Shown here one piece after another: positions 5,776-64,000 of a stretch of 64,000 bases of DNA (position 1 is the first letter of the stretch; each line of letters opens with the position of its first letter). The stretch spans positions 27,156,001 through 27,220,000 of the forward strand of contig OZ296649.1 in the NCBI GenBank assembly GCA_965655095.1. Direction: 5' to 3'. Under the pieces are notes generated by a model, which searched no databases, was not told the origin of the DNA, and saw nothing but the letters and a program-made list of their open reading frames with translations. The position numbers and the translations under genes are program-made. Origin of the DNA: Haplodiscus bocki. Taxonomy: Eukaryota.

Positions 5776-5873
5776 TGAAAAAAGATACCTATATAAAACG
5801 TCTATTACACCAACCCCCCTGAAACAACACTTACAATTATCAATTAGCACCTGTCAAAGTGATTGGATTAACA
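5776..5873 (-). repeat. 3' LTR of copia copy A (98 bp)
   Basis: Direct repeat of 10284-10382 (about 11 differences by eye); purine-rich tract just upstream on the element strand (5874-5898). Confidence 0.95.
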
Positions 5874-6214
5874 TTCGTATCTTTTCAATTTCGACTCCTA
5901 ATTATGGAATCAATATTTAGAGGTCGGTACAGATCGAATAGACTAACGGTAATGAGTTCGCCGGTCTGTAGCATCGATTAGACTGCTGTGAAAACATGGG
6001 CGTGGCAATTTAATGAATACATTACCAGAAACGAATGTTCGGCGATATATGTTTGGCGTGCGTGAGCGAGCAGGATGTAGCGTAGCTTTTGGAAGTATAA
6101 TGAATACATTAACAGAAGCACCATGATAAATCGAATGCACAAGGATTGTGCGTATGGTTTATTCAGCAAAATTAAACATCAAATTTACAAAAAACACTTC
6201 AATAAAAGCGTAAA

Positions 6215-9200
6215 TTAATTACGAATGAAGATAGCGGAAAAACTGTTAGTTTGTGGGACTCTACGCAGCAAATCAGACGAAGGACTTCTCGATTTCGTGA
6301 GGCAATCAGCCACCTGCCTTTTCGTTTCTACCCTTTTTAAACCAGATAAACGTCCGTTTGACAGCATACTTCGCAAGAAACCAATATCGACTTTGGCAGA
6401 TTTATCCGAAATCGAATTGTTGGAATAGGCTGATTTTATAATAGATCTTTTATCCCTGTAGCACACGATAGGTATCTCGATCCCTGATATATCTAGCGGT
6501 ATATTTCTGCAAAATTCAACGGTTTCAAGGTATTCAACTAATGAAAAGCATTCTGCAGCCTAAGTACTGCGTGCAACACGTCGTAATTTTGAACTTTTCC
6601 CAGCTAAAACGGCAGATTTGTTTGTATTCGTTTCTGAATTGAAAGTAATGAATCCAGCGTGGGTAGAACCGTCAGAATAATTGTTGAATGATGCGTCAGA
6701 GAAGCAAGCGAGCTCTGTTTTCGTTAATTGAAAATTCGGATATCGCAGGGTAATCGGTGGCCCTGAATTCACATGCCGGACCGTTTTGTTTGCCAACAGG
6801 GCTACAGAAACAGTCGCCGTTGTGTGTTTCTGAGAGGTCATTTCGGAAAGTTTGCGCCAGATATCGGGCCTGGCCTGTTTCGCCGGCCATAATAACGTTC
6901 CAATTATGCCACTTAGTGCATAAACTTTTTCTCCACTCAGATTTCGCTCCTTGTTTGATGTGTCAGCGAATAGCATCTCCTGAAGACCAGCGCGATAACA
7001 ATCCATATCTAAGCATAAAGCAGATCCAGAGTTGGGCAAATTCACAACCAAACCAAGATACTTGTGAGGAATTTCGATAATCGATCCAAGCGTGAAAACG
7101 GTTTGAATTTTCTCAATAACATCTTTGACGAACGAGTCGTGTCCAGCAATCCAGAAATCGTCCACGTGCGTCAAAATAACACCAGGTAAGTCATTTCTCG
7201 TGTTGGAAAAAATGCTTGGGTCGTATTTAGATTGTGTTAAACCAAAAATGTTGAATTCTGCAATAACTCTCTCGTGCCATAATCTTGAAGCATCAAACAG
7301 TCCGTATACGCATTTTCGTAGCTTCCACAGGTTTGAATTTTTGTACGGTTTTGGTGGCTCTAGGTAGACGTTTCGCTTCAACAGGAAACCTTTTAAAAAC
7401 GCCGTTTTTACGTCAAAAGCACTGCAACGCCAGCTTTCATGTGAGGCTACGATTGTGAGAACTGCGCGAAATCCTTCTTTCGAACACGTTGGCGAGTGCT
7501 TGACCACATTACTGTACTCCGCAACCTCAAATCCTCGAGCAACGAGCCTGGCCTTTTTTGACCAGATTCTTTTGTAGTATAGACCCATCGTGTTGTAATT
7601 CTTGGTTGACCAACATCTTCAACGATATCAAAAAAGCTTCAAGTTTTTCCAGCTCTTCAGTTCTGCTTCACCAGCGTCTGCAAACTCATCCGCAACACTC
7701 ATTGTGGCCAAAGTTGACTCCGACAACGCATTTTTGTCGTTTCTCCGGTTGAGATCTCCTGGTGTGAAGTTTACACACTCGTTGGCATAAGTCGGGTCGT
7801 CATACTGGACGTTATAGTGGAATTTCTATTTCCCTTTGGCCTTACCAGCTCTACTAATGATTTCGGCGCCAAATTCCTCGCCATTAGCACTCAGACTTTT
7901 CACTCGATCTTCGCGTTTTGGCTTCCTAGAACTGGTGAGAGGCTCCAGGGAAGGCTACCTCGGGTTTAGTTTCACCTGAGAAGTCGTAACAGCCTCAACT
8001 TCTGACATTTTCTGCACATCCTGTTCCCCTGTGTCCGTAGTTGACGAGTCATCCAAATCGTCTACCGGAATTGGATTCAGTGGTAATGGGGCTTCTTGGG
8101 ACGTATTTCCTGTGGTAACTAATTTCGAATCTGCTAAATTAGAAACTCCTCTGTCGTTGTGACAATGACGCTGCTTGCTTTCATGCACTTTAAGGACGTG
8201 ACTTCCATTTCTAACAAAGACCACCGAGGACTCGCTGCAAAGCCTTGAGATGGTCAGGAAATGAGCCTCCGGACTCTCCAAAGCGGGCAACTTGTCGTCT
8301 ACCACACATGGCCGTATACTAGCTGGAAAGGAGAGTAGCCCAAATGAGACAAGAGACAGTTTTTGGCAAACACCGTAGCTTTAACATATAGCTCATCATC
8401 GGAAGATTTCAAGTCAGATTTCACTTTTTGGCATGTCTCCGTCCAAATCCTATTATGCGTTTCACAACATCCATTTGATAAGGGGTTTTTATTAGCCGTC
8501 GAAGACACTTTAATATTGAAAAATTCAGCCTTCTGTCTGAACGCTTCACTGTAAAACTACACTCCATTGTCCGTAAGAATCTTCTTTGGGGCATGATGCG
8601 CGACAATCCACTATCGACTCAATACATCAATAATTGTAGAAGACATTTTGTTCGAGATCATCTCAGCCTCTGAAAACCTGGTGTACATATCAATAATATG
8701 AACATACCATTGGGGTGGATTACTCGAGATTTGAAAGAGATCCAATTATATGGTTTCGTTGAAAGATTTTGAGTGGGGCATTGACACGATCGGTTTCCTA
8801 CTGGGCTGGCCAAACTTTTCGCATACTTGACACGGATTCTTAATTTTTTCTAGGTTCATTTTCCAGTTTTCTAGTTTCCCTGCACTTCTTAGCAGCCCTC
8901 CTAGACGTTCTGGACGACAGTGTCCAAACTGACGATGAAGTTTCATTAGAGACGTCTCGTTGAGAACTTCCGCTGTAATAATTTGTAGCGAATCTGTAGG
9001 AGAATTTCGCGGAAAAATCACTACAGCAAAGTGACCACTAGCCAGTTCTTCTAGATCAATCGTTGCAGATTCGGGAATTATCATCGTGTGCTTGTATGCA
9101 TCAATCATTGCACGCGTTTTCTTCAGCGATTTAACGCTCAAGAGCAGTGGAAGATTACCCGGAGTAAGTTCAACATTCAAATAACAGTTCAAGTCGCCAA

Positions 9201-10284
9201 AACACGTGGGAATACTGACTCTCTGCAGATACTTGGACATTGCACCTCCTCCAAACATAATCTTCGCCCCAGTTTCGTGTTTTTGAACCAGCTGTCTCTG
9301 TTCATCTGTTAGAGCAGACACGCATTTTTTTATCCAGTTATGGTCGAACACCGTTGTGGTACATGCGGTGTCTACAATAGCCTTCCCAAATGTGTTCGCA
9401 AGGACAGACGGAGCCAATTTGACAAAACTAAGAAAAGCGTCTTGTGTATTTTCGCTTGGCCTATCAGGGCAGTCTCGAGCGCAATGGTTTCTACTTCCGC
9501 AAATTCGGCATGTAGTGACATAGCCTTGGTTATCTTTCGATTTTTTTCCTTCAGATTTGAATTTCTTGCCATGATTAGAATCACCTCTTTGAGCGTAATG
9601 ATTTTGGATTCTCTTGCGGGAAAAACTCAGTCTATACTTCTGAATGCGCCCATAGAATGCTTCTCCAGATGAGGACTCTTCATCAGAGTTTTTGGCATCT
9701 AGGGTCTTGAAAATGGGTTCTTCCTTGACATCTGCAGCAGTCTGTGCTAGCGTGTCGCAAGAAATGCGCTTGAGCGTTCCTCTCATTTCTGACAATTTCA
9801 GAGTTTTTGTGGTTGCCAAAACCATCTGACGTTCAGATGTCCGTAGACAAGCCCCATGTAACAACTTACGTGCTCAAACAGAATCTGGTAGCTTCCTTTC
9901 CAGCTTTTCAGTTTTCTAGTAAGCAATTTCAAATTCCAAAATATAGTCAGCAATAGATGAAGTAGGTTGCCTTTTCAGTTCTTCAAACCTCACGTATGCC
10001 TCATACGCACTGTCAACCGTGTCTTTAGCAAATTACTCTTGTAGCTTGGCAAGTAGCCTCGTAACGCCATCTTCATGGTTCAGACCACCAATCGGAACCT
10101 GCTTGGCAACCTCTCGTTTCCTGCCTTGCAGTGTCAACACTATAATTGGTGCACGTTTTTTGACTTGAATATCAGTATTAACGAGCCACATTTCAATTTC
10201 GGCTTTCCAGCTCTCGAAGCTCCTGTTATCGGACCAAATAGGCGGGGTTTTGTTCGGAAGTGTAACAGACATTTCTGCTACCAT
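6215..10284 (-). pseudogene. copia A gag-pol, broken by stops and frameshifts
   Basis: ORF pieces 10033-10284 (gag), 8746-9864 (ZnK/PR/HHCC), 8299-8508 and 7955-8305 (INT), 6560-7588 (RT/RH), 6215-6466 (RH end). Confidence 0.9.
10274..10283 (-). promoter_or_regulatory. Primer-binding site TGGTAGCAGA (initiator tRNA-Met 3' end), copia A
   Basis: Immediately follows the LTR-terminal CA on the element strand; identical in copy B (51757-51766). Confidence 0.85.
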
Positions 10285-10382
10285 GAAAAAAGATACGTAC
10301 ATAAAACGTCTATTACACAAACCCCGCTGAATCAACACAAACAATTAATAAATTAGCTCCCGTCAAAGTGATTGGATTAACA
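10284..10382 (-). repeat. 5' LTR of copia copy A (99 bp)
   Basis: TGTTAATCCAATCAC...TTTTTTCA, then the PBS. Confidence 0.95.
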
Positions 10383-22595: not shown

Positions 22596-23985
22596 GTAAG
22601 TGTCAATACTCAACAACCTTTTTATCTCAAATGTATCAATTTAGTTTCTATCGTGGCGAAACTTTTTTTGGTTAACAATTATATTGACTTTCATTAATCC
22701 TGTCATTTGAGAAATGCTCGTCAATTATGTACAAATGTATCCCTTCATTTGCTTTATTTTCACAGCCTGTTTGTATTTTTGGGATCTACATATACTTTCA
22801 AACAGTTTGACATTGTGATATGCTGTAGCTTTGAGTTTCACGTGAGTTCGAGTTTTTTTGAAATGGAGTTTCCTATCAGAAGTCAGAAGTTGGAAGATAA
22901 TTTTGAGCATTGAAAATTTCAAGTTATTTATCAAGTCAGAAATTGCTAGGCCGGGTGCCTTACTAACCACAGTGGAGTCAAAAAGCTGTCTTTGCGTGAC
23001 CTTGAATACCCAGCAGCTATTTCCCGGAGCTGTTTCGTTAAAACCGTTATTATGAGTCCTTTGAAAAATGTCTGCGTCAGAAATTTCAAACTTTACGTAA
23101 GTTACAACTTTTTTTGTTAGAACTGAGTAAATACTGTGTAGTGATAAAATTCAATAATGCGACAAAGCAATTTCAACAAAACTGGCAAAATTTTAAGTAC
23201 AGTAGTGTGAGAAAGTGGAAGAAGCTTTTTTAATTATTGGAACGATTTCTGTACTTGCGTAATACTGTAAAACAAGTGAAAATCACAAGTTATGGTCGAA
23301 AGTTTGAGAATTTTATGTAGTTTGCAATAGTGTTTGTTTGAACCTTCCAGGGTTAATGTTACAGTAGTTTTTGGAATTTTTGTATGCACGGATATTAGGA
23401 TACGAATTTCGTTTTGCATCCACAACTTTCGATGTTTCAAGTGCCTTCTACTCCATTTTCGTTTAGATGCCACTCGTCTACTGATTACACTCACAAGTGG
23501 TTACACTTCAAAAGAGCATGGACATTTTTTGAGAAATAATACCATTTTCGTTGTTATTACGTTGTAAAGCTGGTCCTTTCTTGTGTATAACGTGTGATTT
23601 TCAGTTGTTTTTGAGTATTACGCAAGTATATGTACCGTTCCATCCATTAAAATCGAATTAAGGTTCCCTTCTTTTCTCATACTACTGTAGAGTAGAAAAT
23701 AATAAGATTTCAGAGTAAGCAAATGTACTGCGAGAAAGCTCATTAAAGAGTCTATCAGATGCTTTTTTTTATTTGCACAAAGAAGAACTTCTAACATGTA
23801 TAAAATTGAGTCCAAAAATTGAGCAAATAAACTATGCAAGCTTTGGGTATTTCAACTACTTTTTGCAGTTTTCGAAAGGAAGCTTGGCAATGACGCAAGA
23901 AAATAAACAAATGAGACGGTTTTGTTAGTTTGTGGCCAAGACTTTCCATTTTACGACTCAAAAAAGAGTTATGAATTGAAAATGG

Positions 23986-24066: not shown

Positions 24067-24084
24067 AATTAATTTCCCCGAGTA

Positions 24085-24464
24085 CACTCATTATCTTTCA
24101 TAAGAACATGAGGGTCTGAAATTTTTTTTGATTAAGAACACCTAAGAACAATTTAGGCTCAAAATTCAAAAAGTGTTATCAGACAAAATATAATTCTGGA
24201 TCTCCTATTCTAATTTCTAATTAAATACAGCTTTTGTTTATCCGAGGAAATTAGCAGCGGCACAATTTTTTTTGTCGAAATAAATGAAGCAGCCGCTGAG
24301 CTGCACTAACTAATAGCTGCAGTAGATTTCAGTATTTTCACAGGCTGACCAATAATTACGTCATACATTTACACTAAGAACAATTTAGACTCACTTCGTT
24401 GTTTTCGTTAAGGACAAATGATGTTCGATTCCAATAGGTGTGTTCTTCTAAAGGATAATGAGTG
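24085..24464. mobile_element. MITE, Tc1/mariner-type (TA target site)
   Basis: TA-CACTCATTATCTTTCATAAGAACA ... TGTTCTTCTAAAGGATAATGAGTG-TA; 24-bp TIR with 3 mismatches; internal direct repeat ctaagaacaatttag. Confidence 0.75.
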
Positions 24465-25202
24465 TATTATGTTTTGAAATTTTAAATACAATTCACAACA
24501 AACTTATCAAGAATTAGAAGTGTTTCTGGAGTTCTCATTTATTCTTCTCTCAGGACAGCGAACGTATCCATCAGAATCACAAAATACTGCCCCTTACAGC
24601 ATGCTGAAAATTTGAATCAAACCTGTATGGGAAAAAATAGAATCTGGATGAAAAAGGAGAGGGTGAGAAATTATGGAAAAATTTCAAATTTTATTGACGA
24701 AATGAAAAAGAATTCGGCAATTCTGAAAATTACCGAAAAATGATTGACTTTCGAACAGTTTTCGGAACATTTTCCGCCGACGAATAATATTAGCTGCCGT
24801 GGAAAAATCATGGTCATCTATTGTAAAATGTTGTGAATTTGTCAAAAAGCCCGCAAGTTGACAAAAACGCATGTTTTAAGTTTTGGCTCTACTCATCAGA
24901 TAAATTTTTGAACAAACAGCATTGTATTCCGAAAAAATTTTTTTGCAGTTTTTGTCTGAGATGTTTGTTTGCGGAGCTATTCGTGCTGATAGTCGATGTA
25001 TTAATAATATCTAGTCGCATTACTTGAAATGAAGACAGTTGCCGACATTTGGCGAGATTATTGAGAACAGAAGAGAATAATACAGTTCAGAAGTTTCAGC
25101 AGTAGGATGCTTGTAAACTTTGTGCTTCAAGAAATGAGACACCAGACTTTTTATAGGGTTACTTTGCATACTTTAGTTAATTGTTGTTTTGTCATCTTTC
25201 AG

Positions 25203-35471: not shown

Positions 35472-35709
35472 ATTGCAGGAATTGGAGAGAATGTTCAGCA
35501 AGAAGTTCATCCAAGGAGGAGAGAAGGCTAATAACAGTGGACTGCAAGAAAAGAGAGCACGGAGGAAGAAGCATGCAGAGGAGACAAGACGCAAAGCTCT
35601 TCGGGAAGCAGCCGAGAGTGAAAACATGGATACTGTCGTGCAAGTCTATGACAACGTTATGAACGAAATACAAGACAAAGTCAAAATGGAGGAGGGACTG
35701 CGCAAAAAG
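35472..35709 (+). CDS. KIF17: Kinesin-2 (KIF17/OSM-3-like) coiled-coil exon
   Basis: tttttcag acceptor, gtttga donor; LQELERMFSKKFIQGGEKANNSGLQEKRARRKKHAEE..VVQVYDNVMNEI, resembling KIF17 VGGEQAKNKDLKEKHKRRKRYADE..LNVYDSIQEEV. Confidence 0.92.
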
Positions 35710-35757
35710 GTTTGAAAAACTGTCTTCTCTTATTTATTAGGCATGAAGCGTGAGCTT

Positions 35758-35875: not shown

Positions 35876-38800
35876 CTGAATTTTCCCTCGGAAATACGAA
35901 ATGAAGACAGAGACAATTTTTTGAAAAATTACCCCAATAGATCCATAACAGAAATTTTCAACTTGCCTTCCCCAGCTCTTTTTGCTGCAGCCTGGGAAAA
36001 AAGTTTTAGTTGTTTCTGAAAGATTCACATTCGGTTCCCGTGTCCAAAATTTTGTGGAAAGTATTGATGACTTGGTTGTTGCTTTGCGTCGCCTAGCACG
36101 AACGTGCGAATTTGAACTTTTTTCCTGCTTCTCTGCGAGAATAGTACGCATACGTGATCGAATATTACAAGGAAATCTTGCAAGAGAAGAATGTTTTGAA
36201 ATTGCTCAGCGTATTGAACCTGGTATCACAACATCTGCTCTACTAAAAATTTTCCGCTTGGGAGACCTTTCCTTAAGTGTAAACACGGCTCAACGCTTAA
36301 ATTTAATATGCGCAGTACAAACAAGAAAAACCCCATAGTAAATAGAATTCACGTTACTTATGCGGCTCTACCAAGCACTTTGTTAACGGTAAAGACTGTC
36401 CAATTCAGACGGGAAAATGCCGCAAACGCTGTAGACATTCCCTGCTGTAGAATAGTTCCTGCTTATTTCGAATGTTCACTTACATTAGACAACAATAAGG
36501 TGAAATTCATTGTTGTTAGTGCTGCGAAAGCATCCATTCTTTGCGAACACTTTCCCTAGACTTTTTCCTAGCAGTGTCTGCGGAAAGTAAGGAATTTCGA
36601 AATAACTGGTAACGGTGGATCTGCTATTAACTCAAAAAAGAAATGTTCTCTCACAGTTCAAGACTACTAGGCCATTCGAGCTTGAATTTCATATTGCTAA
36701 TGGAATTTCTCCCATGGGATTGAACAGGTTGGGAAAGCTGAGTTTTTCACTTTTCATCAACGATAAAGAACTCCAAAGAATTGATACAATTTGTACTGGC
36801 AGTGTTCTGTTAGTCGATCTAAACCAAATTTCAGACCAACCAACTAGGTTTCGCCAAGATTTATCCTTTTGCATCAGCTATAAATGAAACTGTTGAGGTG
36901 GTTATTGCTAGAGTTTGTACGTTCCTGTTCGCGATGAAGGAGAGCATGTGCCGCAAAAAGCTGAAAAATTGCGTAAATTGGTTGTTTGGAGCCCTGTATC
37001 AATGCTGATGTAGATTGTTTTTGGCGAAAAAAGGGAATCCGTTTTTGGTGTGAGCTCCGTGAGTTGCATTCAATAATAAGTTCGGTAACTAATGCTTGCG
37101 TTTTATCGAAAATTGATCCAACTAACGCCTAACATCAAGTACCTGTGAATGCGAAAATAGCGGTTGTTGGGATTCATCTTCCTTCCGGGTTATGAAAATT
37201 CATTGGAGCATCTTTGGGTTGAAGTACTTTCCCAATCAGTTTCCAAAAATGATGGACATTTTTCCAGCAAGACTTGCTTGTTGCTTCAGTTTCCTTGACG
37301 ATATAATCTACGGTTCCACAACTGAAGAACATGATGCTCGCCTGCATGCTGTTTAAGAACATGTTGAATCGAATTGACTCGTTGCCAACTATGAAAAATG
37401 TGAATTCTTCGAAACATCCATCGAATTGTTTGGTCTTCAACTTGGGTTAAACGAAATATCCGTATATAAAAACAACGTGTTAGCCATGAACTGAAAGTGT
37501 CTTACATTAAGCAACCTCTAGCTGGTGCTCTTGGTCTTCTTAGTCATCATCGAAAGTTTCTTCCGAGTACATTCTCAACAATAGCCGCCGAGCTCTACGC
37601 TCTTGCATAAAAACGTACAATTCACTTTCCATGAGAAACATACGCAAAATTATCGAGACATTAAGAGAATACTTGCCGACGTCAAACCTTTAGCCTTGTT
37701 TAATCCTCTAGTCGATACTATTGTTACTTGCGGTGCGATTAAATTTGGAATTGGTGGTGCATGATCTCAAAAGTAAGCAGATGGGAGCTTCAAAAATGTT
37801 GCCCTTTCCGCGACTATGAAAAAAAGTAATGTTCCTGAATCACAATTTTCAACTAGCAGATCTACCGGCGAACGATTTGAGCGTTTGGTGAGGGGCAAAC
37901 CCTTTACTTGAAAACTGAATGAAAATCACAGTTTCAGCTAATGGAAGGAGAAGTTGGTGATGGTATAGGAACACTACGGTTATCAAGATAGTCTGCACGT
38001 CATCGATGTAATTTTACCGTTTTTCACAAGTCCGCAAAAAGTAAATCTGTTCCTGATGCACTTTCTTGATTTCCGGTTGAAAACCAAGCAACAAGTTCAA
38101 ATGATGAGTTTATGGGAAGTACTCTGATCAGCGACCTCACCGCTTTCAAACAAGAAGAAGTTGGTAGTTTTTCCTGGAACGATTTCGTTCTTCGAACAAT
38201 TGGCGATTTTTTTTAACGGCTGGTTGAAATGCTTCGCCATTTTCTTCCATTTTCTTTCATCATATGAAGGATGAACTGTACGGCTAGTCTCGATATAGCT
38301 TTGTCGTTCAGTCATCGTGATACCTGAATCTGTTCGTGGCAAAGCTTTAGCGCGAGCACATGAACGATTCTTTGGTATTGTTCGCTCAAAATTTAAGCTA
38401 CCAAAAGTTGCGTGTTGGCCTCGCTGTCGTTTCGACCTCGAAGAAAATGTTGTAAACATGTTCTCCATGCTGTGCATTATACAAGGCCCAATTTGTGAGA
38501 GAAGTTCCCATCGAAAGATAGAAAGTGCGTCGAAACCTCTCCGAACGGTCAGTGTAGTTGTTAGTGGTCCCTACAACGAAGCACTTGCGAAGTTCAAGTA
38601 GATTTTTGTTGTTATGAATGATTTCTCACGATAGACTCAAGTTTTTGCATTAGTGAATGCTACAGCTACCAAAGATAACGATTATCTCAAAGATTTCTTT
38701 TCTCGTTTTGGCATTCCTGAATTGATAACATGCGACAAAAAACCTGCATTCAGGAGTAAGAGAATTTTGTAAGCAATCAAGAAAACTCAAATCCAGCACA

Positions 38801-46134: not shown

Positions 46135-46233
46135 TGAAAAAACATACGTATATAAAACGTTTATTACACAAACCCCCCTGAAGCAACACATACAATTAAT
46201 CAATTAGCACCTGTCAGAGTGAGTGGATTAACA
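46135..46233 (-). repeat. 3' LTR of copia B (99 bp; CCA(C)TCA and AATAAA on the element strand)
   Basis: Direct repeat of 51767-51865. Confidence 0.95.
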
Positions 46234-49200
46234 CTCGTATTTTTTCAATTTTGACTCCTAAATATGGAATCAATTTAGAGGTCGATACAGAACGAATAGA
46301 CCAACGGTAATGAGTTCGCCGGTCTGTAGCATCGATTAGAGTTCTGTGAAAACATAGGCGTGGCATTTTAATGAATACTTTACCAGAAACGAATGTTCGG
46401 CGATATATGTTCGCCGTGCGTGAGCGGGCAGGATATAGCGTAGCTTTTGGAAATATAATGAATACATTAACAGAAGCATCATGATAAATCGAATGCACAA
46501 GGATTGTGCGCATGGTGTATTCAGCAAAATTAAACATCAAATTTACAAAAAACACTTCAATAAAAGCGTAAATTAATTACGAATGAAGATAGCGGAAAGG
46601 CTGTTAGTTTGTAGGACTGTAGGCAGCAAATCAGACAGGACTGCTCGATTTCGTGAGGCAATCAGCAACCTGCCTTTTCGTTTCTATCCATTTTAAACCA
46701 GATAAACATCCGTTTGAAAGCATATTTCGCAAGAAACCAATATCGACTCTGAGATTCATCCGAAATCGAATTGTTGGAATAGGCTGATTCTACAATAGAT
46801 CTTTTATCCGTGTAGCACACGATAGATATCTCGATCCCTGATATTTCTTGCAGTATATTTCTGCAAAATTCAACGGTTTCCAGGTATTCAACTAATGAAA
46901 AGCATTCTGCAGCCTAAGTACTGCGTGCAACACGTCGTAATTTTGAACTTTTCCCAGCTAAAACGGCAGATTTGTTTGTATTCGTTTCTGAATTGAAAAT
47001 AATGAATCCAGCGTGAGTATAACCGTCAAAATTATTGTTGAATGATGCGTCAGAGAAACAAACGAGCTCAGTTTTCGATAATTGATCAAAATTCGGATGT
47101 CGCAGGGTAGTCGGTGGCCCTGAATTCACATGGCGAACCAGTTTGTTTGCCGACAGGGCTACAGAAACAGTCGCCTTGTGTGTTAGAGAGGCCACTTCGG
47201 AAAGTTTGTGGCAGATATCGGGCCTGGATTGTTTCGCCGACCATAACGTTCCAATTATGCCACTTAGTGCAGTAACTTCTTCTCCACTCAGATTTCGCTG
47301 CTTGTTTGATGTGTCAGCGATTAGCATCTCCTGAAGACCAGCGCGATAAGAATCCCTATCTAAGCATAAACCAGATCCAGAGTTGGGCAAATTCACAACC
47401 AAACCAAGATATTTCTGAGGAATTTCGATAATCGATCCAAGCGTGAAAACGGTTTGAATTTTCTCAATAACATCTTTGACGAACGAGTCGTGTCCACCAA
47501 TCCAGAAATCGTCCACGTGCGTCAAAATAACGCCAGGTAAGTCATTTCTCGTGTTAAAAAAATGCATGGGTCGTATTTAGATTGTGATAAACCAAAATTG
47601 TTGAATTCTGCAATAACTCTCTCGTGCCATAATCTTGAAGCATCATTCAGTCCGTATACACATTTTCGTAGCTTCCACAGGTTTGACTTTTTGTACGGTT
47701 TTGGTGGCTCTAGGTAGACGTATCGCTTTAACGCGAAACCTTGTAAAAACGCCGTTTTTACGTCAACAGCACTGCAACGCCAGCTTTCATGTGAGGCTAC
47801 GATTGTGAGAACTGCGCGCAATCCTTCTTTCGAATTTGTTGGCGAGTGTTTAACCACTGTATTGTACTCCGCGGCCTCAAATCCTCGAGCAACAATCCTG
47901 GCCTTTTTTGACCAGAATGTTTTGTAGTATAGACCCATCGTGTTGTAATTCTTGGTTGACCAACGTCTTCAACGATATCAAAAAAGCTTCAAGTTTTTCC
48001 AGCTCTTCAGTTCTGCTTCACCAGCGTCTGCAAACTCATCCGCAACACTCATTGTGGCCAAAGTTGACTCCGACAACGCATTTTCGTCGTATCTCCGGTT
48101 GAGATCTCCTGGTGTGAAGTTAACACACTCGTTGGCATAAGTCGGGTCGTCATACTGGACGTTATAGTGGAATTTGTTTTTCCCATCGGCCTAACCAGCT
48201 CTACTAATGATTTCAGCGCCAAATTCCTCGCCAGTAGAACTCAGAATTTTCACTCGATCTCTGCGTTTTGGCTTCCTAGAACTGGTAAGAGGCGCCAGGG
48301 AAGGCTGTACCTCGGGTTTAGTTTCACCTGAGAAGTCCTAACAGCCTCAACTTCTGACATATTCTGCACATCCTGTTCCCCTGTGTCCGTAGTTGACGAG
48401 TCATCCAAATCGTCAACCGGAATTGGATTCAGTGGTGATGGTGCTTCTTGGGACGTATTTCCTGTGGTAACTAATTTCGAGTCTGCTAAATTAGAAACTC
48501 CTCTGTCGTTGTGACGATGACGCTGCTTGCTTTCATGCACTTTAAGGACGTGACTTCCATTTCTAACAAAGACCACCGAGGACTCGCTGCAAAGCCTTGA
48601 GATTGTCAGGAAGTGAGCCTCCGGACTCTCCAAAGCGGGCAACTTGTCGTCTACCACACATGGCCGTATACTAGCTGGAAAGGAGAGTAGCCCAAATGAG
48701 ACGCGACAGTTTTTGGCAAACGCGGCAGCTTGAATACATTGCTCATCATCGGAAGATTTCAAGTCAGATTTCACCTTTTGGAATGTCTCCGTCAAAATCA
48801 TATTATGCTTTTGACAACATCCATTTGAGAAGGGGCTGTTAGCAGCCGTCCAATACACTTTAATGTTGAAAAATTCAGCATTTTGTCTGAACAATTCACT
48901 GTCAAACTCCCCTCCCTTGTCCGTAAGAATCTTCTTTGGGGCAGCATGCGCGAAAATCCACTTTCGATTCAATACACCAATAACTGTAGAAGACATTTTG
49001 TTCGAGATCATTCAGCGTCGGAAAACCTGGTGTAGATATCAATAATATGAACATACCAATTGGGTGGATTACTCGTAATTTGGTGGAGATCCAATGATTT
49101 GGTTTCGTTGAAAGATTCGGAGTGGGGCAGTGACACGATCGGTTTTCTACTGGGCTGGTCAAACTTTTCGCATACTTGACACGCGTTCACAATTTTTTCT

Positions 49201-51766
49201 GTGTCGCTCATTTTCCAGTTTCCTAGTTTCCTTGCACTTCTTACCAGCCCTCCTAGACGTTCTGGACGACAGTGTCCCAACTGACGATGAAGTTTCATTA
49301 GAGACTTCTCGTTGAGAACTTCTGCTGTAATCAGTTGTAGCGAATCTGTAGGAGAATTCCGCGGAAAACTCTCTACAGCAAAGTGACCACTAGCTGGTTC
49401 TTCTAGATAAATCGGAGCAGATTCCGGAATTATCATCATGTGCTTGTCGACATCAATGATTTCACGCGTTTTCTTCAGCAAGTCGCGCAACAGTTCTTCA
49501 GCAACAGTTCAAGTCGCCAAAACAGGTTGGAATACTGACTCTCTGCAGAGACTTGGACATTGTACCTCCTCCAAACATAATCTTCGCCCCAGTTTCGTGT
49601 TTTTGAACCAGCTGTCTCTGTTCATCTGTTAGAGAAGACACGTAATTGTTTATCCAGTTATGGCCGTACAGCGTTGTGGTACATGCGGTGTCTACAATAG
49701 CCTTCCCAAATGTGTTCGCAAGGACAGACGGAGCCAAACTGGCAACACTAAGAAAAGCGTCTTGTGTATTTTCGCCTGGCCTATCTGGGCAGTCTCGAGC
49801 CCAGCGGTTTCTACTTCCGCAATATCGGTATGTAGTGACTTGCCCTTGGTTATCTTTTGGGTTTTCTCATATAGCTCATCATCGGAAGATTTCAAGTCAG
49901 ATTTCACTTTTTGGCATGTCTACGTCAAAATCCTATTATGCGTTTCACAACCTCCATTTGATAAGGGGTTTTGATTAGCCGTCGAAGACACTTTAATATT
50001 GAAAAATTCAGCCTTCTCTCTGAACGCTTCACTGTAAAACTACCCTCCATTGTCCGTAAGAATCTTCTTTGGGGCATGATGCGCGAAAATCCACTTTCGA
50101 CTCAATACATCACTAATTGTAGAAGACATTTTGTTCGAGATCTTCTCAGCCTCTGAAAACCTGGTGTACATATCAATAATATGAACATACCATTGGGGTG
50201 GATTACTCGAGTTTTGAAAGAGATCCAATTATATGGTTTCGTTGAAAGATTCGGAGTGGGGCAATGACACGATCGGTTTCCTACTGGGCTGGCCAAACTT
50301 TTCGCATACTTGACACGGATTCTTAATTTTTTCTAGGTTCATTTTCCAGTTTTCTAGTTTCCCTGCTCTTCTTAGCAGCCCTCCTAGACGTTCTGGACGA
50401 CAGTGTCCAAACTGACGATGAAGTTTCATTAGAGACGTCTCGTTGAGAACTTCCGCTGTAATATTTTTGTTGCGAATCTGTAGGAGAATTTCGCGGAAAA
50501 ATCTCTACAGCAAAGTGACCACTAGGCAGTTCTTCTAGATCAATCGTTGCAGATTCGGGAATTTTCATCATGTGCTTGTGGACATCAATCATTGCACGCG
50601 TTTTCTTCAGCGATTTAACGCTCAAGAGCAGTGGAAGATTACCCGGAGTAAGTTCAACATTCAAATAACAGTTCAAGTCGCCAAAGCAGGTGGGAATACT
50701 GACTCTCTGCAGAGACTTGGACATTGCACCTCCTCCAAACATAATCTTCGCCCCAGTTTCGTGTTTTTGAACCAGCTGTCTCTGTTCATCTGTTAGAGCA
50801 GAAACGCATTTTGTTATCCAATTACGGTCGCACACCGTTGTGGTACATGCGGTGTCTACAATAGCCTTCCCAAATGTGTTCGCAAGGACAGACGGAGCCA
50901 ATTTGACAAAACTAAGAAAAGCGTCTTGTGTATTTTCGCTTGGCCTATGAGGGCAGTCTCGAGCGCAATGGTTTCTACTTTCGCAAATTCGGCATGTAGT
51001 GACATAGCCTTGGTTATCTTTCGATTTTTTTCCTTCAGATTTGAACTTCTTGCCATGATTAGAATCACCTCTTTGAGCGTAATGATTTTGGAACCTCTTG
51101 CGGGAAAAACTCAGTCTATACTTCTGAATGCGCCCATAGAATGCTTCTCCAGATGAGGACTCTTCATCGGAGTTTTTGGCATCCAGGGTCTTGAAAATGG
51201 TTCTTCCTTGACATCTGCAGCAGTCTGTGCTAGCGCGTCGCAAAATATCCGTTTGAGCGTTCCTCTCATGTCTGACACTTTCAGAGTTTTTGTGGTTGCC
51301 AAAACCATCTGACGTTCAGATGTCTGCAAACAAGCCCCATGTAACAACTTACATGCTTGAACAGAATCTGATAGCTTCATTTCCAGCTTTTCAATTTTCT
51401 GGTAAGCAGTTTCAGATTCCAAAATATAGTCAGCATTAGATGAAGCAGGTTGCCTTTTCGGTTCTTCAAACTTCACGTATGCCTCATACGCACTGTCAAC
51501 GGTGTCTTTAGCAAAATACTCTTCTAGCTTTGCAAATAGCCTCGTAACGCCATCCTCATGGTTCAGATCACCAATCGGAATCTGCTTGGCAACCTCTCGC
51601 TTCCTGCATTGCAGTGTCAACATAATAGTTGGCGCACGTTTTTTGACTTGAATGTCAGTGATAACGAGCCACATTTCATTTTCGGCTTTCCAGCTCTCGG
51701 CGCTCTTGTCATCGGACCATATTGGCTGGTTTTTTTTCGAAATTGTAACTGACATTTCTGCTACCA

Positions 51767-51865
51767 TGAAAAATGATACATATATAAAACGCCTATCACA
51801 GAAACCCCCCTGAAACCACACATACAATTAATCAATTAGCACCTGTCAAAGTGATTGGATTAACA
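51767..51865 (-). repeat. 5' LTR of copia B (99 bp)
   Basis: TG..CA, followed by the PBS. Confidence 0.95.
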
Positions 51866-55400: not shown

Positions 55401-57449
55401 TAATTTCCTAACAGCTAATACTCTGAGGTTCTTAATAAGCGGGACCCCCTACGTAATGTCAAAGAGCTAAAAATGCCGACCCTTGCACCAATCGAAACCA
55501 CCTTTATTAAAAAGAGAAGATACAGGTGTGTATCACTGAAACTTTTATTTGTTTTTCTTGGTAAATTCACGTACTTAAATTCCCACAAAGTGTCCAAACT
55601 TTTACTGTTTTAAGCGAGAACTTTCTTCATAACATGGTTTCTTCGAGCGGAATTGAATGAAAAGTTTCAAAATACATCTTTTCCTGAAAAGTAAATCAGC
55701 CTTGTTTGCAATATAAATTGGGACCCTGTGTTTAGTTGAACTTCCCTCTTTGTCCAACGGAAAGAAAATAGACCCTCGATAAATATAACCCTCCCGCTTA
55801 TTTAGAACCCCAAAGTATGCTGTGCGTGGAAAGTTTGAACACTATTTTTTCAGTAATGAATTGGAAAAATGAGATATTCTGATGAGTTGGAAGAATGCAC
55901 TGGTGAAAAGTCTCTTAATTGAAATTTATAATTAGTTTTCAGTCATAATAGTTTTTGGAGGGGTTAATCGCTCTCTTTAAATTAATCCATTCCCGGCAAG
56001 TTTTAAACTTCATCTTTTGTGATTCGTATGTAATCTGAACAAAGAACAGCGTTTGTAAAACACATTGAACGACAATGCTTTTTTTACATATTCTGACTCA
56101 AGGAAAATTGAGTGTTGAAACTGGCTAATGCTTAGCTTTTGAATCGGCGCTAATGAACAAACCTCATTTTGAATCAACTCAATTTTTGTACAGAGTTGCT
56201 TTTTTGTATTTTTCTGACAAATTGTTTTTTAATGGTACGAATTTTACCACATATTCCAAACCTATTAACATCAAAAAAACTTTGATATCCATCTTTGCGT
56301 GTACCAAAATTTTATGAGAAGCCAAACACGAAAAATTTTCGTGATACCAGTTTTGCATAAATTGGAAAATTCAAGTGATACCGGCCACTCGATTGTCCAC
56401 CATTTTTGCTAGCGGGCTTTTTGGCTGAAGTAATTAACCGTTAAACTCGATTTTCCGCGGACTTCGACCAACTGATTGCATTTGGGACGTTTCATTCCCA
56501 ATTCGATGTTGAAATTCGGGCCCATTCTCAATTATCCGCCTGGAAATTCTGCGAATATACTGATGGAAAATGGAAGTAATATTCAATATCCCTTTAGTAA
56601 GGAGTTTTTTTTTCACAGTACCTAAACTATTCAGAACATTAAGGGTTCCCCCTGTGAGTTTTTTAGACTCCACGATGGTGCCACTCTGACCTTTTTGTGG
56701 CTGGTTTATCCTGTCCACAACTCTCATTTTTTACGTCGTCAAAAAGTTTGGCGGTGTAGTGAAAACGGTCAAAGACAACCTTTTCGAAACATTTGGCAGG
56801 TTTTTGTTTATTTTAGTGCTGCAAAATATGCCAGTTTTTTAAAACATGTATAATAAAAATGAACAACAGCCTCCTAAAAGGTCAAGTTATTTATATCAAT
56901 GTTTTGAATGCGAAAATTTTGGTGGTATATCATGCCTTTCCGAGTTGTTCACAGTGTAAACGTCCTAAACATTGGGCAGCAAATTGGCGCAACCTGAAGA
57001 AGACATGATTGACATATCATTTTTGTATTGAGGCAGTGTGGCAAAAACTTGTTCGTTTTCGTGTTTTTTTTTACTCTGCATACTTAAACATTGGGCTTCA
57101 AACTCGCGAAACCTAGAAGGCCATGATTGATAGATTGAATGTATGAATGTGAGGCTTTGCGACAGTTAATAGTCTCTTTTCAATTTTTCCGAACTAACAT
57201 TAGATTGACAGCTAGTGTAGTGCCTATCACATCTCCGATCATGTTTCAAATGTGTCAGGATTTTCGATGGGTAATTTTTACCTTTGATCTCAACTCACCA
57301 TTTAAAATGTGTTGCGAACTTCGCTTCGGCTCTGTGTTGAGATAGACTCTATTTCGCTTGTTGAAAATACAAAATCAATGTTATTTACAAAGCAAAATAC
57401 TGTAAAGGCTAATGATTTGAAACAATGAGTAAAACGTTTAGAGGTTAGG

Positions 57450-58800
57450 TTTTTGAAGAGTATAGTTACTTAAATCGAAAATCGTTTAAACATTTTTTTT
57501 ATCGTATTCACGTCTCTGTATTTCCTGATTTAGTTTCTTGATGAAGAAATGTTTGACGTTTTTCTTGACCGTTAGATTGGTATACTTTTTAACATTTATA
57601 CTGGCTGGTAAACTGTTCTACACAGGAATTACTTTATAGAACAAACTGTCGCATGAAATCCGCATAAAGAATCAAAGTAAAGGTTTCTTGTACTTTTGTG
57701 TTCCTTAATTTTAATTAGTACACCTTGTAATTTCAAGTTGTTGATGAAGGCAATAACAATTTTTTTTCTCTTTTCAGAAATACGATTGAACTCGTGCACT
57801 CATTAATAGTTCAATTGGTAGAATATGGTGTTCTTTTTAGATCGGGTGTGCGTTCGAATTTAGTTTGCTAAAAACATGCCATAAGGCCTCAATTTAATTG
57901 TTTCTCGAGTGATATAATTTTCCGAGCTTCCGTTGTATATTCGTCAGGATAATAATGCAGATGCCTCATAGCCCAGGTGTTCAGCAGCAATAAGCGGATT
58001 TCTTTGAGAAATGAGTCAAGTAAAGAGTACCTTGACTTGATTCCACACGCCATTTTACGTAAATTTTCACTTCATTTTGAAATGTGAGGTTTCGGTCTGA
58101 GTAAATGGCGAGGTGTTGGGCTAATTGTTTAATCTTTCACTTTCAGTTGTTCGGTTTTCATACTTTTCATTCTTCGATGCTTTGTTGGAGATTATGAAAT
58201 CAGTTTTTTCCGTGCTTACGCTGACGCAATTACTCGAAAAAGGACATTCCTTTAGATAGATTTGCCTTTAATTCTTCTATTGCTGATTTTGTTATTTAAT
58301 AGAGGTGAAGATCATTGCGTCGTCGGTATATTGCATTCGCTGATAATCGCTGTTAACAATATTAATCAAGTTATTGACGTATTTATTGAAAAGAAGAGGA
58401 AGGAGTATAGTCCCCTGAGGAACACCTTGAAAGTTGAATCCAATCTGAATTACTCGAAGGAAGTATTACCTTTCGGTTCCGCTCGCAAATGTAACGCAAT
58501 ATCTTTGAGGTGGTATGTGTATTGAATTTTATCATTTTTTGGAGTAGGATTTTCGGTGAAACAGAATCAAACGCTCTTGAATGATCGATCATTTTTCATA
58601 AGATGGACTTTCTGTGAACCAAGCCGGACAACTATGCTCGGCTGAATAAAAGGCCAATTCCTGAGTAATTACAAAATGGCGCATGATCTCAACAAATTTT
58701 ACCGTGAATTACGTAGTATTTTGCTTTTGAGAATTAGCTTCATCCTTAATACATGGTAATATATACTAAATACAAATGACTTTAGCATAGAAATTGACGG
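57450..58800 (-). mobile_element. CR1/L2/Jockey-group LINE RT fragment
   Basis: IDHSRAFDSVSPKILLQK (D.sKAFD.V), SDWIQ..VPQG-like, QYTDDAMIF (YADD motif, about 58310-58335). Confidence 0.75.
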
Positions 58801-61527: not shown

Positions 61528-61789
61528 GTGCAAGCGGCTGAGGTTGAGATCCGAGACCTGCAGAGCGAGTTTGAGAACGAGAGGCGCGACTATCTGGAGA
61601 CGATTCGGAGTCAGGCCAAGCAGATGCAGTTGGTGGAGGCTATTTTGGAGAAGATGCAGCCGCTCATTCAGAGAGACTGCAACTATTTTAATTTGCGCAA
61701 AATCAAGGAAGATGCCAAATTTGACATTGACTCTTCTTGTTGGAAACTACCTGACATCCAGATGACCAAAACTAACTTGCCCAGTCTTG
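61528..61789 (+). CDS. KIF17: Kinesin-2 (KIF17/OSM-3-like) tail exon
   Basis: ttgtag acceptor, gtaggt donor; VQAAEVEIRDLQSEFENERRDYLETIR..QPLIQRDCNYFNLRKIK..WKLP..TKTNLP, close to KIF17 LRAAEVEIKDLQSEFQLEKIDYLATIR..QPLIRRDCNYSNLEKI..WKIP..TKTSLP; phase 0 matches exon 35472-35709. Confidence 0.95.
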
Positions 61790-62109: not shown

Positions 62110-62216
62110 GTCAAGAAAAAGCGGCAAATACAGGATCGTTTTCAAGGCTGGACAGAAGCAACAACAGTTTGCATCAATTGTCCCCTACTGGGGGCGGCAA
62201 TTCACATTCACAGAAG
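62110..62216 (+). CDS. KIF17: Next kinesin-2 tail exon (low complexity)
   Basis: tgtttcag acceptor; phase-1 join G+GT = Gly, open frame GQEKAANTGSFSRLDRSNNSLHQLSPTGGGNSHSQK, GT donor. Confidence 0.7.
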
Positions 62217-63056
62217 GTTTTTTTGTTCATTTTTGTAAAAAAAATCTCACCAGCATTTTCCTGTAAACATTCTTTTGTTTTTGAAGCAGTAAATCTACTC
62301 GCTTTGTAAAATAGCGTATAGTGTATTTCGCGAATTTTTTAAATCATGTATCGGTCGGAACCTGTACTGAAAACTTCTTGCACATTATCTTGTTTTTTTT
62401 TGTGTATTCAAAACTGCTGAGAAACTTAAAAAAAACTAGCAATACTTCAAAAAATCGCTTCTGGGAATAGTTTCACAGTAACTGCTTTTTCCACCACAAT
62501 TATCAGTCGCGATCTAGTAAGTCATTACCGCTTCTCGACCGTGACCTCGAAACCTTACTTTTCGCTTCGGTATTGTTACTTTTTTACGTATCGATGCATA
62601 TTTTTTAAGGGGGAAATACTGAACAAAATTTAAAATGCCAAAGTCAGAAGCTTCTCAAGTGTATGTATGGACCTGAGAGCGCCTTTTTGATAGGTAACAT
62701 CTTGCTGTATTGAATAGTGTTTCAACTGCCGCAATGCTTTGTATTTGTTATTTGTCCGGCCCAGACCCATTTTCCCTTGCGGAGCTCTCTTTTGCCTGTT
62801 CCTGGTTTTCCAGTGATGCCGATAAGATCTCCTTTTCCGGACCTAGTCCGTGCCTAGTTTTCCAGCTTTTGCTGTGTCCTTACCGCTTCGGCGTGTTCTT
62901 GGCATTTCTTCCGCGTTTATCCGAGTCTTGGCGAAGCTGACCCGGTATCCTTCATTCCCCTAAGCAATAGGACACACACGTGAGTACTTAGATAAAACGA
63001 ACTTTCTTTTTCTGATATTTTTGGTTTTTTGATTGCGTTTTCGTGAAGTTTTGTAA

Positions 63057-63536
63057 ATGCCGTGTTCTCACCCTCATTCGCATCTGCCGTTGTACGTCTT
63101 ACCGCATCAAAACCCCCGACCGATCGGTCCGCCGCCTTCTTACGATGAAGCCCGTTCCAGACCGTTGTTTTCGATCTGTTTTTTGACTTTTCTGGTTATC
63201 GTCCAAACTTTCGCGCTGCTGATGATCGTCCTAGCGCTTTGCGGTCTTTCGTACGAAGTAAACCGTGTAAACGTTACTTGTCAAAGCTTTCAAACCTCAA
63301 CAAGTGATAAAACCTTTTTTTACAACAATAATTTTGGTCACGAAAAATGTTCACTTTCTGCATTCCTGTGTCCGTGTTTTCGAATGCCGTTCCTGAAACG
63401 TACATTATACCGTGTTACTTTTGCCAAGCAAAGTTTTTCAAAATTCTTTTGTCGCAACTACCAGATTTTCTGTTCACACCCCATCAAATCAGTATACATC
63501 TTGGCTTGGAAGCAATGCATCATTGGTAACATCTGA
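63057..63536 (+). CDS. Intact 159-aa ORF: Pro-rich N-terminus with PPPSY, one hydrophobic helix, Cys-rich C-terminus
   Basis: ATG..TGA; PPSY motif; LFSICFLTFLVIVQTFALLMIVLALCGL hydrophobic run; NVT sequon; 7 Cys after the helix. Confidence 0.5.
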   Translation: MPCSHPHSHLPLYVLPHQNPRPIGPPPSYDEARSRPLFSICFLTFLVIVQTFALLMIVLALCGLSYEVNRVNVTCQSFQTSTSDKTFFYNNNFGHEKCSLSAFLCPCFRMPFLKRTLYRVTFAKQSFSKFFCRNYQIFCSHPIKSVYILAWKQCIIGNI

Positions 63537-63772
63537 CTGGACAACCTCAGCTCCCTTTTCTTCCCAGCACTCAAACTTCTAGTGTAAAATCAACGTCTGC
63601 GCATTTCTTTCCCCACTTAGCAAACATTTGGCGTTCGCACATTGAATTCCTTTCTCTACATGTGTCAAATCCATCCTTTTTGGGTTTTCCTGAGTGTGCT
63701 GCCATAAACTTCACCTCAAGAAGCATGAACCGACACTAAAAAATTTTTTTTTGTAACGAGAAAGAGATAAAA

Positions 63773-64000
63773 ATGTCAAACTCACCTCCTCCAACGACTC
63801 CTACTAACCAACAAGGACAACAACATTCTCAGACGAATCCAGGTAACTCTGTCGGAAGTAATCACCAAGCCAGCGGGTTAACGAACACCCAGAATTCAAC
63901 TGCCATCGGTGCAAATTTCTTTGCAATGCCAGGCAGTCCACAAGGAGGACGAGGCTTCCCATACGTCACTCCACTCCCTTCATGCCTAATGCCTGAGTCC
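63773..64000 (+). CDS. gag-like ORF N-terminus (76 codons, open to the window end)
   Basis: MSNSPPPTTPTNQQGQQHSQ...FPYVTPLPSCLMPES; no stop; absent from the ORF track, probably because it runs off the window. Confidence 0.5.
   Translation, partial: MSNSPPPTTPTNQQGQQHSQTNPGNSVGSNHQASGLTNTQNSTAIGANFFAMPGSPQGGRGFPYVTPLPSCLMPES

Follow-up and report, generated by a model that had tools for sequence, protein, structure and literature searches.

Two small open reading frames upstream of gag in a gypsy-type element of Haplodiscus bocki, one of them a candidate PY-motif membrane adaptor

Structure of the locus

The window, a stretch of 64,000 nucleotides of Haplodiscus bocki DNA, has a GC content of 35-45% and consists of animal-type DNA with spliceosomal-looking exons. 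An exon at 61528..61789 (+ strand), single-copy in depth, was assigned to the stalk/tail of a kinesin-2-like host gene; its best PDB matches, KIF3B/KIF3A, were weak (E 0.08-0.45), and the likeness is presumably to KIF17. Kinesin-2-like exons at 35473-35711, 61528-61789, and 62110-62216 are spread over more than 26 kb. About 1 kb downstream of the 61528..61789 exon, on the same strand and probably within an intron, lies a gypsy element. In a coral-metagenome run from 2017, the exon at 61.5 kb was ~98% identical and the element ~92%. Analysis of other repeats in the window revealed two decayed copia-like elements with RVT_2 on the − strand (5776-10382 and 46135-51865; ~92-97% alike, with terminal repeats of ~100 bp), the second of which carries an internal duplication of ~1.1 kb; three MITE-like inverted-repeat pairs, ~300-350 bp apart (23228-23652, 24083-24466, and 55418-55818); and remnants at 38097-38601 and 58383-58592 that by eye resemble the integrase region of another gypsy element and the RT of a LINE.

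Predicted proteins and contigs from public runs were the material in which copies of the gypsy element were examined. The gag gene of the element is cut by the window edge, and the 76 initial codons available (63773..64000, + strand) have longer relatives in 14 clusters (41 sequences). The best of these, P0005 (385 aa), is 97% identical and matches Retrotrans_gag and zf-CCHC (zinc knuckle) above cut-off, its match to Ty3_capsid (E 2e-5) being below cut-off. In relative P0012, the gag N-terminus is fused to RVT_1, with Ty3 RT as the best PDB match (E 4e-11). Both P0012, in which a deletion joins gag to RT, and P0056, in which ORF B (see below) continues into the gag start, are decayed relatives. 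On the host side, the single-copy flank contigs stop at 62777 in 3/3 runs, and the 62705-62791 bin shows an abrupt increase in summed depth; the ~50-fold rise beyond 62777 is not to be equated with copy number. Because of the gag relatives, the Ty3-like RT of P0012, and the flank break with its rise in depth, the sequence data indicate that the window closes with the 5′ end of a Ty3/gypsy element present in multiple copies. The original prediction had made this assignment provisionally, and the gag domains of P0005 and the RT of P0012 now support it; it had also considered an exon of a single-copy host gene, a reading rejected because the element is multi-copy and adjoins gag. Scans for related loci gave no match in viral contigs (queries gag and ORF B) or in metagenome contigs (queries ORF alignment and gag).

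A likely 5′ LTR of ~880 bp was delimited at 62746..63626 (+ strand). TGTT at 62746 and AACA at 63626, the latter followed by TT and a TGG site, define a candidate of 881 bp whose left edge (62746-62753) is uncertain by a few bases. The previously noted CA-TT-TGGCG junction is located at 63625-63633, 89 bp past the stop of the 159-aa ORF originally described, and the PBS-like site (63629..63646, + strand) begins two bases past the CA. Since CA-N0-3-TGG occurs three times per kb in the window, the junction is suggestive, not proof. Contigs of a coral-metagenome run break at ~63624, and a diverged copy retains blocks 62750-62901 and 63562-63680 at equal spacing. The depth ratio over the LTR junction was just 1.3-1.5, a value that does not measure copy number, and the sequence shared among copies seems to begin at 62748, not at TG. 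No second LTR copy was found within the 64-kb window, which ends in gag; no AATAAA/ATTAAA or TATAA was found in the LTR candidate, and no '3′ LTR' version of ORF B, of 94-120 aa with a random tail, among the 15 of 21 members listed. We consider it rather likely, judging from these sequence features, that ORF A, the first of the two frames described below, lies inside the LTR; whichever LTR placement holds, ORF A and ORF B are upstream of gag. The last 8 of 12 bases of the PBS complement are shared with the end of tRNA-Asn(GUU) in the accessible part of a supplementary table (PMC13524379), which is a lead only; no tRNA gene was found in the window. At 62748, the sequence immediately before the repeat start is common to contigs of two runs and is rich in pyrimidines instead of purines; should it represent the inner side of the 3′ LTR, the family would have no adjacent polypurine tract. 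At 62836, three to six contigs per run enter the repeat from a CT microsatellite, corresponding to a subfamily whose 5′ portion differs.

The donor-like GTGAGT previously reported is present at 62980..62985 (+ strand), and AG-ending T-tracts precede both the ORF A start and gag, so that spliced messages could be produced from this donor and these tracts. ORF B is complete only at the 5′ end of the element, and therefore RNA must begin upstream of 63347.

Coding frames upstream of gag

The feature originally described in this region was an intact 159-aa Cys-rich ORF starting with ATG (63057-63536, + strand). This frame is open in the window copy, and its reported attributes were all recovered: PPPSY at codons 25-29, a hydrophobic stretch at about codons 37-63 with a Kyte-Doolittle 19-mer peak of 2.68, the NVT sequon at codon 72, and seven Cys 3′ of the helix (75, 98, 105, 107, 132, 139, and 154), as was the gag-like ORF downstream, whose ATG (63773) is 237 bp past the stop. 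The length by itself is unremarkable, because a six-frame count gave seven ATG frames of at least 159 aa in the window. A search with this ORF retrieved eight other proteins, three close and five more distant relatives, and none of them (0/8) shows the 159-aa form. These relatives depart from or join the frame at differing points, and only P0002 and P0019 track it through most of the Cys tail. The range initially delimited (63057..63640) thus does contain the 159-aa ORF, but a second and better supported frame, ORF B, had gone unreported.

Differences among copies were obtained by comparing two runs (of five listed) over 63030-63570 at a threshold of 25%, which gave one length difference and 38 substitution rows, these being contig-level differences from two samples of one study and not independent events; the wider comparison had 358 difference rows, of which 40 were listed, and 37 indel rows, of which 12 were listed. 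Each row was compared with the probability of silence for a change of its type placed at random within the stretch concerned. In the first part of the frame (63057-63320), 11 of 21 rows were silent, with 6.1 expected (p 0.018), and the other five frames gave p values of at least 0.30; counting one row per place, 10/18 were silent (p 0.017). The upstream non-coding control (9 rows) had no frame with p below 0.33. In the tail of the frame (63324..63536, + strand), which contains six of the seven Cys and no conserved coding part, just 3 of 17 rows were silent in frame A (expected 5.0, p 0.92), and it is in frame B that the differences of this tail are silent. Furthermore, a difference at 63490 shuts the 159-aa frame in 94% of the depth (701/744 depth units in run X1 and 1971/2090 in run X4). 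These data indicate that the 159-aa form arose in the decaying window copy via read-through into ORF B sequence in the wrong frame. With regard to preservation across copies, codons 1-88 are under selection and the Cys tail is not.

We designate as ORF A the 88-codon core together with the stop position of its relatives (63057..63323, + strand), a frame with PY motifs, one helix, and a short tail. Its codons 1-88 appear to be under purifying selection, although the p values are modest. The sole length difference with a share of at least 25% in 63030-63570 falls at the codon-89 position (231/575 and 1008/1703 depth units), where the frames carrying it end; none was found within codons 1-88. No common difference affects the start codon, LPLY, PPPSY, or N-x-T-C. 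The LPLY sequence (63084..63095, + strand), which we take to be an LPxY-type PY motif, is identical in relatives P0020 and P0024; this motif type is named in the available text of PMC5849660. The PPxY motif PPPSY (63129..63143, + strand) is identical in P0020, P0024, P0003, and P0004 and reads SPPSY in P0002. A transmembrane helix was predicted at codons 37-63 (63165..63245, + strand) by hydropathy and by AlphaFold, which returned a single helix at 40-85 with pLDDT 89-94 at residues 41-60. The N-x-T-C sequence (63270..63281, + strand), comprising the sequon and the sole conserved Cys after the helix, is NVTC here and NITC in P0020/P0024, and it is absent from the decayed copies P0002, P0004, P0021, and P0023.

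P0020 and P0024, a cluster of two proteins of 89 aa, are 47% identical to ORF A; the search that retrieved P0020 favours shared motifs, and P0020 may be a host gene or belong to another element. Both start with MPCSH and retain LPLYV, PPPSYD, CGLS, N-x-T-C, the helix, and the aligned stop position. Within the helix, none of the 15 differences between ORF A and P0020 leads to a charged residue, and 3 of the 15 require a second-position change (expected share ~0.47, p 0.03); conservative changes overall were borderline (18/47 with positive BLOSUM, p 0.06). ORF A had no real match in Pfam, no usable match in the structure atlas, and no match beyond the element's kin among 1.84 billion representatives. 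The proposal of a retroelement accessory membrane protein stands, because it is the part with PPxY and helix that appears to be under purifying selection.

ORF B (63347-63739, + strand) comprises 130 codons in a frame other than that of ORF A, spans the LTR end and the PBS, and ends 33 bases before gag. Over 63347-63570, 11 of 15 rows were silent in this frame, against 4.4 expected (p 4e-4; next best frame, p 0.07), and in the last third 0/5 rows were silent. The window copy of ORF B is broken by a premature stop (63527-63529) that is absent from all compared depth, and its pieces are identical to P0052 at 57/60 and 65/68 positions. A profile search retrieved a cluster of 21 sequences and more relatives; among the 15 of 21 members listed, 12 are exactly 130 aa long and one is from JGI, and the size of the longest contig agrees between ORF B and gag rows in 9 of the 15 (9/11 for long contigs). 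The initial Met was conserved in 17/17 aligned rows. Taken together with the silence test, the sequence comparisons indicate that ORF B is under purifying selection. None of its helices is of membrane-spanning length, and no homology was found between ORF A and ORF B. Inspection by eye revealed C23-x2-C26 with H46/H51/H58/H59, a CxxC...H..H arrangement that we take to be of zinc-binding type; 0/17 members matched a zinc-finger Pfam, and ORF B had no real Pfam match. The best value in the structure atlas was 0.83, the best E in a PDB sequence search was 0.44, and the structure model (pLDDT 40) was unusable. A candidate match among genome contigs, L001, was rejected as chance: it covers 59 residues at 36%, and its E of 3e-4 applies among candidates only. 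ORF B may be a soluble 130-aa partner, possibly a zinc-binding regulator.

Other interpretations of these frames were weighed against the same data. That the 159-aa Cys-rich type II protein is itself the functional product, similar to MMTV Sag, is scarcely credible: the frame is open in the window copy and P0002 and P0019 follow it over much of the tail, but the tail is without silent excess, its differences are silent in frame B, and most of the depth carries the stop. The 159-aa product was rejected on these grounds, and with it the proposed Cys-rich ectodomain and Sag-like type II glycoprotein, which both rest on the read-through tail; a single decayed copy can mimic a long protein-like ORF. 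It is very improbable that ORF A and ORF B form one membrane protein with B as ectodomain, whether by reading through the stop, by frameshifting, or by splicing at the T-rich junction. P0003 and P0023 do pass from A into B without a stop, and A and B are in one frame in the common length variant; however, each of the two is a lone decayed sequence in which the frame changes again, the stops are not abolished by any common difference, ORF B conserves a Met of its own, and P0020 ends at 89. Finally, ORF A might be non-working, either a regulatory upstream ORF or a chance coding-like stretch of LTR, with ORF B as the only gene. The p value of just 0.018, the expectation of hydrophobic frames from T-rich DNA, the lack of matches in Pfam and atlas, and the near family, for which no 88-aa product is called in the protein collection (vs 21 ORF B sequences), are compatible with this view, but P0020/P0024 keep the open frame, both motifs, the helix chemistry, and the stop at 47% identity, and the motifs are free of common differences and codons 1-88 of common indels. 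We therefore regard a non-working ORF A as unlikely.

Predicted function of ORF A

Our preferred reading, to which we give about an even chance on the basis of sequence features, is that ORF A would be a tail-anchored membrane adaptor predicted to recruit NEDD4-family ubiquitin ligases. In the proposed mechanism, the 88 codons would be translated and the product inserted into the membrane after release from the ribosome. Proteins with a helix close to the C-terminus are inserted in this manner according to the tail-anchored rule; since 25 residues separate the end of the ORF A helix from the stop and no signal peptide is present, the insertion would be of the tail-anchored type, with a cytosolic N-terminus. 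Both PY motifs would then be cytosolic and within reach of WW domains, and the sequon would be in the lumen. Binding of the PY motifs to the WW domains of NEDD4-family ligases would redirect these enzymes at endosomal or Golgi membranes, most likely with the outcome that a host membrane protein, or the ligase, is ubiquitinated and then removed or re-sorted, in the manner of U24, UL56, and UL42. The charges flanking the helix (0/0 in ORF A, −2/+1 and −2/+2 in P0020/P0024) do not favour the N-in orientation, and as the charge rule does not confirm N-in, room is left for a fusogen reading. ORF A is read as a NEDD4-family adaptor because its layout is that of the Itch-binding adaptors in the available text of PMC5849660, namely, N-terminal PY motifs, a C-terminal helix, and no signal peptide. 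According to the same part of this source, U24, UL56, UL42, and ORF0 bind Itch via PPxY and relocalise and deplete it, and KSHV ORF16, an LPxY protein, failed to bind Itch (PMC5849660).

Two further roles were considered for the protein. ORF A might act as a late domain in trans, bringing NEDD4/ESCRT to the membranes at which Gag capsids accumulate, for budding into vesicles or passage to neighbouring cells, a possibility that we find distinctly unlikely. It would suit a Gag that, in P0005, has no PPxY, PT/SAP, or YPxL, and the position of ORF A directly before gag, like that of MDG1 sORF2. Against this role, ORF A has no visible Gag-binding feature, and gypsy capsids are mostly not known to bud. 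In the available text of PMC5849660, PPxY late domains are described as working via Nedd4/Itch, which favours the role, but free PY adaptors cut the yield of retroviral vectors. Extending the late-domain role to an LTR two-gene accessory module, in which ORF A would provide the motif-less Gag with a NEDD4/ESCRT late domain in trans under the control of ORF B, yields a speculative proposal of low probability; if true, it would provide a route of cell exit needing neither Env nor a FAST-type fusogen. The fusion role suggested in the original prediction, with ORF A as an N-out cell-cell fusogen similar to MDG1 sORF2/FAST, is improbable on the features examined. Its size (63-107 aa reported for sORF2), one helix preceded by ~36 residues, the Tyr just after the helix, the location upstream of gag, and the charge bias of P0020/P0024, which fits N-out, are in line with it. 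However, three sORF2/FAST hallmarks are missing: there is no MGxxxS/T (ORF A, P0020, and P0024 start with MP), no polybasic patch is present (one K/R in the first 10 residues past the helix in all three proteins), and Tyr66 of ORF A is Phe in P0020/P0024. In addition, N-out would make the PY motifs extracellular and the conserved sequon intracellular. The adaptor reading, if true, would suggest that transposition is limited by a host membrane protein.

Comparison with known systems

MMTV sag and HIV nef are LTR-encoded retroviral genes that act on host membrane traffic or signalling, and ORF A is, like them, an accessory ORF likely located within an LTR. It differs from MMTV Sag in that no large ectodomain with Cys remains when the read-through is discounted, and in belonging to a gypsy element, not a retrovirus. 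NDFIP1/2 and Commissureless are membrane proteins with PPxY and LPxY that direct NEDD4 ligases; ORF A is much smaller than these, has a single helix, and showed no Pfam or sequence match to them. NDFIP is named among the adaptors in the available text of PMC5849660. The Tor element of Oikopleura also has a third, membrane-protein gene in a gypsy-like element of a marine invertebrate, but the Tor Env glycoprotein is large, is cleaved by furin, and carries its helix at the C-terminus; from the accessible part of its description, it is in no way similar to ORF A (PMC4402516).

Insect MDG1 elements are the main known source of small accessory ORFs in LTR retrotransposons, one of these ORFs being a fusogen. 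In the available text on this Drosophila gypsy group, sORF1 and sORF2 are likewise two selected small ORFs before gag, one membrane and one soluble, and ORF A resembles sORF2 in being short, with a single transmembrane helix, on the same strand upstream of gag (10.1101/2025.03.14.642691). Purifying selection on sORF2 across drosophilids is reported in the accessible part of PMC13486581. Compared with what is described there for MDG1, the order here is reversed, with the membrane ORF first, the membrane ORF is likely inside the LTR and ORF B crosses the PBS, no insect-type sequence match was found, and PY motifs replace the myristoylation motif and polybasic patch; MGxxxS/T is present in 4/6 MDG1 sORF2s (10.1101/2025.03.14.642691). 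The portion of that survey available to us required the myristoylation motif and covered arthropods only, so the ORF A type would have been missed (10.1101/2025.03.14.642691). In a survey of env-bearing gypsy elements, the accessible text and supplement gave no match to 'sORF' or 'upstream of gag' (PMC13524379). Searches of the literature outside subscription journals and repeat databases retrieved no PY-motif or tail-anchored retrotransposon protein. A pair of small ORFs ahead of gag is already known from MDG1, and the PY-motif, tail-anchored form appears, from its sequence, to be new; a selected ORF spanning the LTR end and PBS, such as ORF B, is unusual.

Among the herpesvirus adaptors, U24 is similar in size to ORF A. 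From the available text of PMC5849660, ORF A shares with HHV-6/7 U24, HSV UL56, HCMV UL42, and VZV ORF0 the N-terminal PY motif, the near-C-terminal helix, and the absence of a signal peptide. No homology to these proteins was found in Pfam, the 1.84 billion representatives, or the structure atlas, and ORF A differs from them in being retrotransposon-borne, in its 25-residue tail with a conserved sequon, and in that its PY binding is only predicted. If ORF A is indeed a PY-motif, tail-anchored protein, it would represent a retrotransposon converging on the hijack of ubiquitin ligases practised by herpesviruses.
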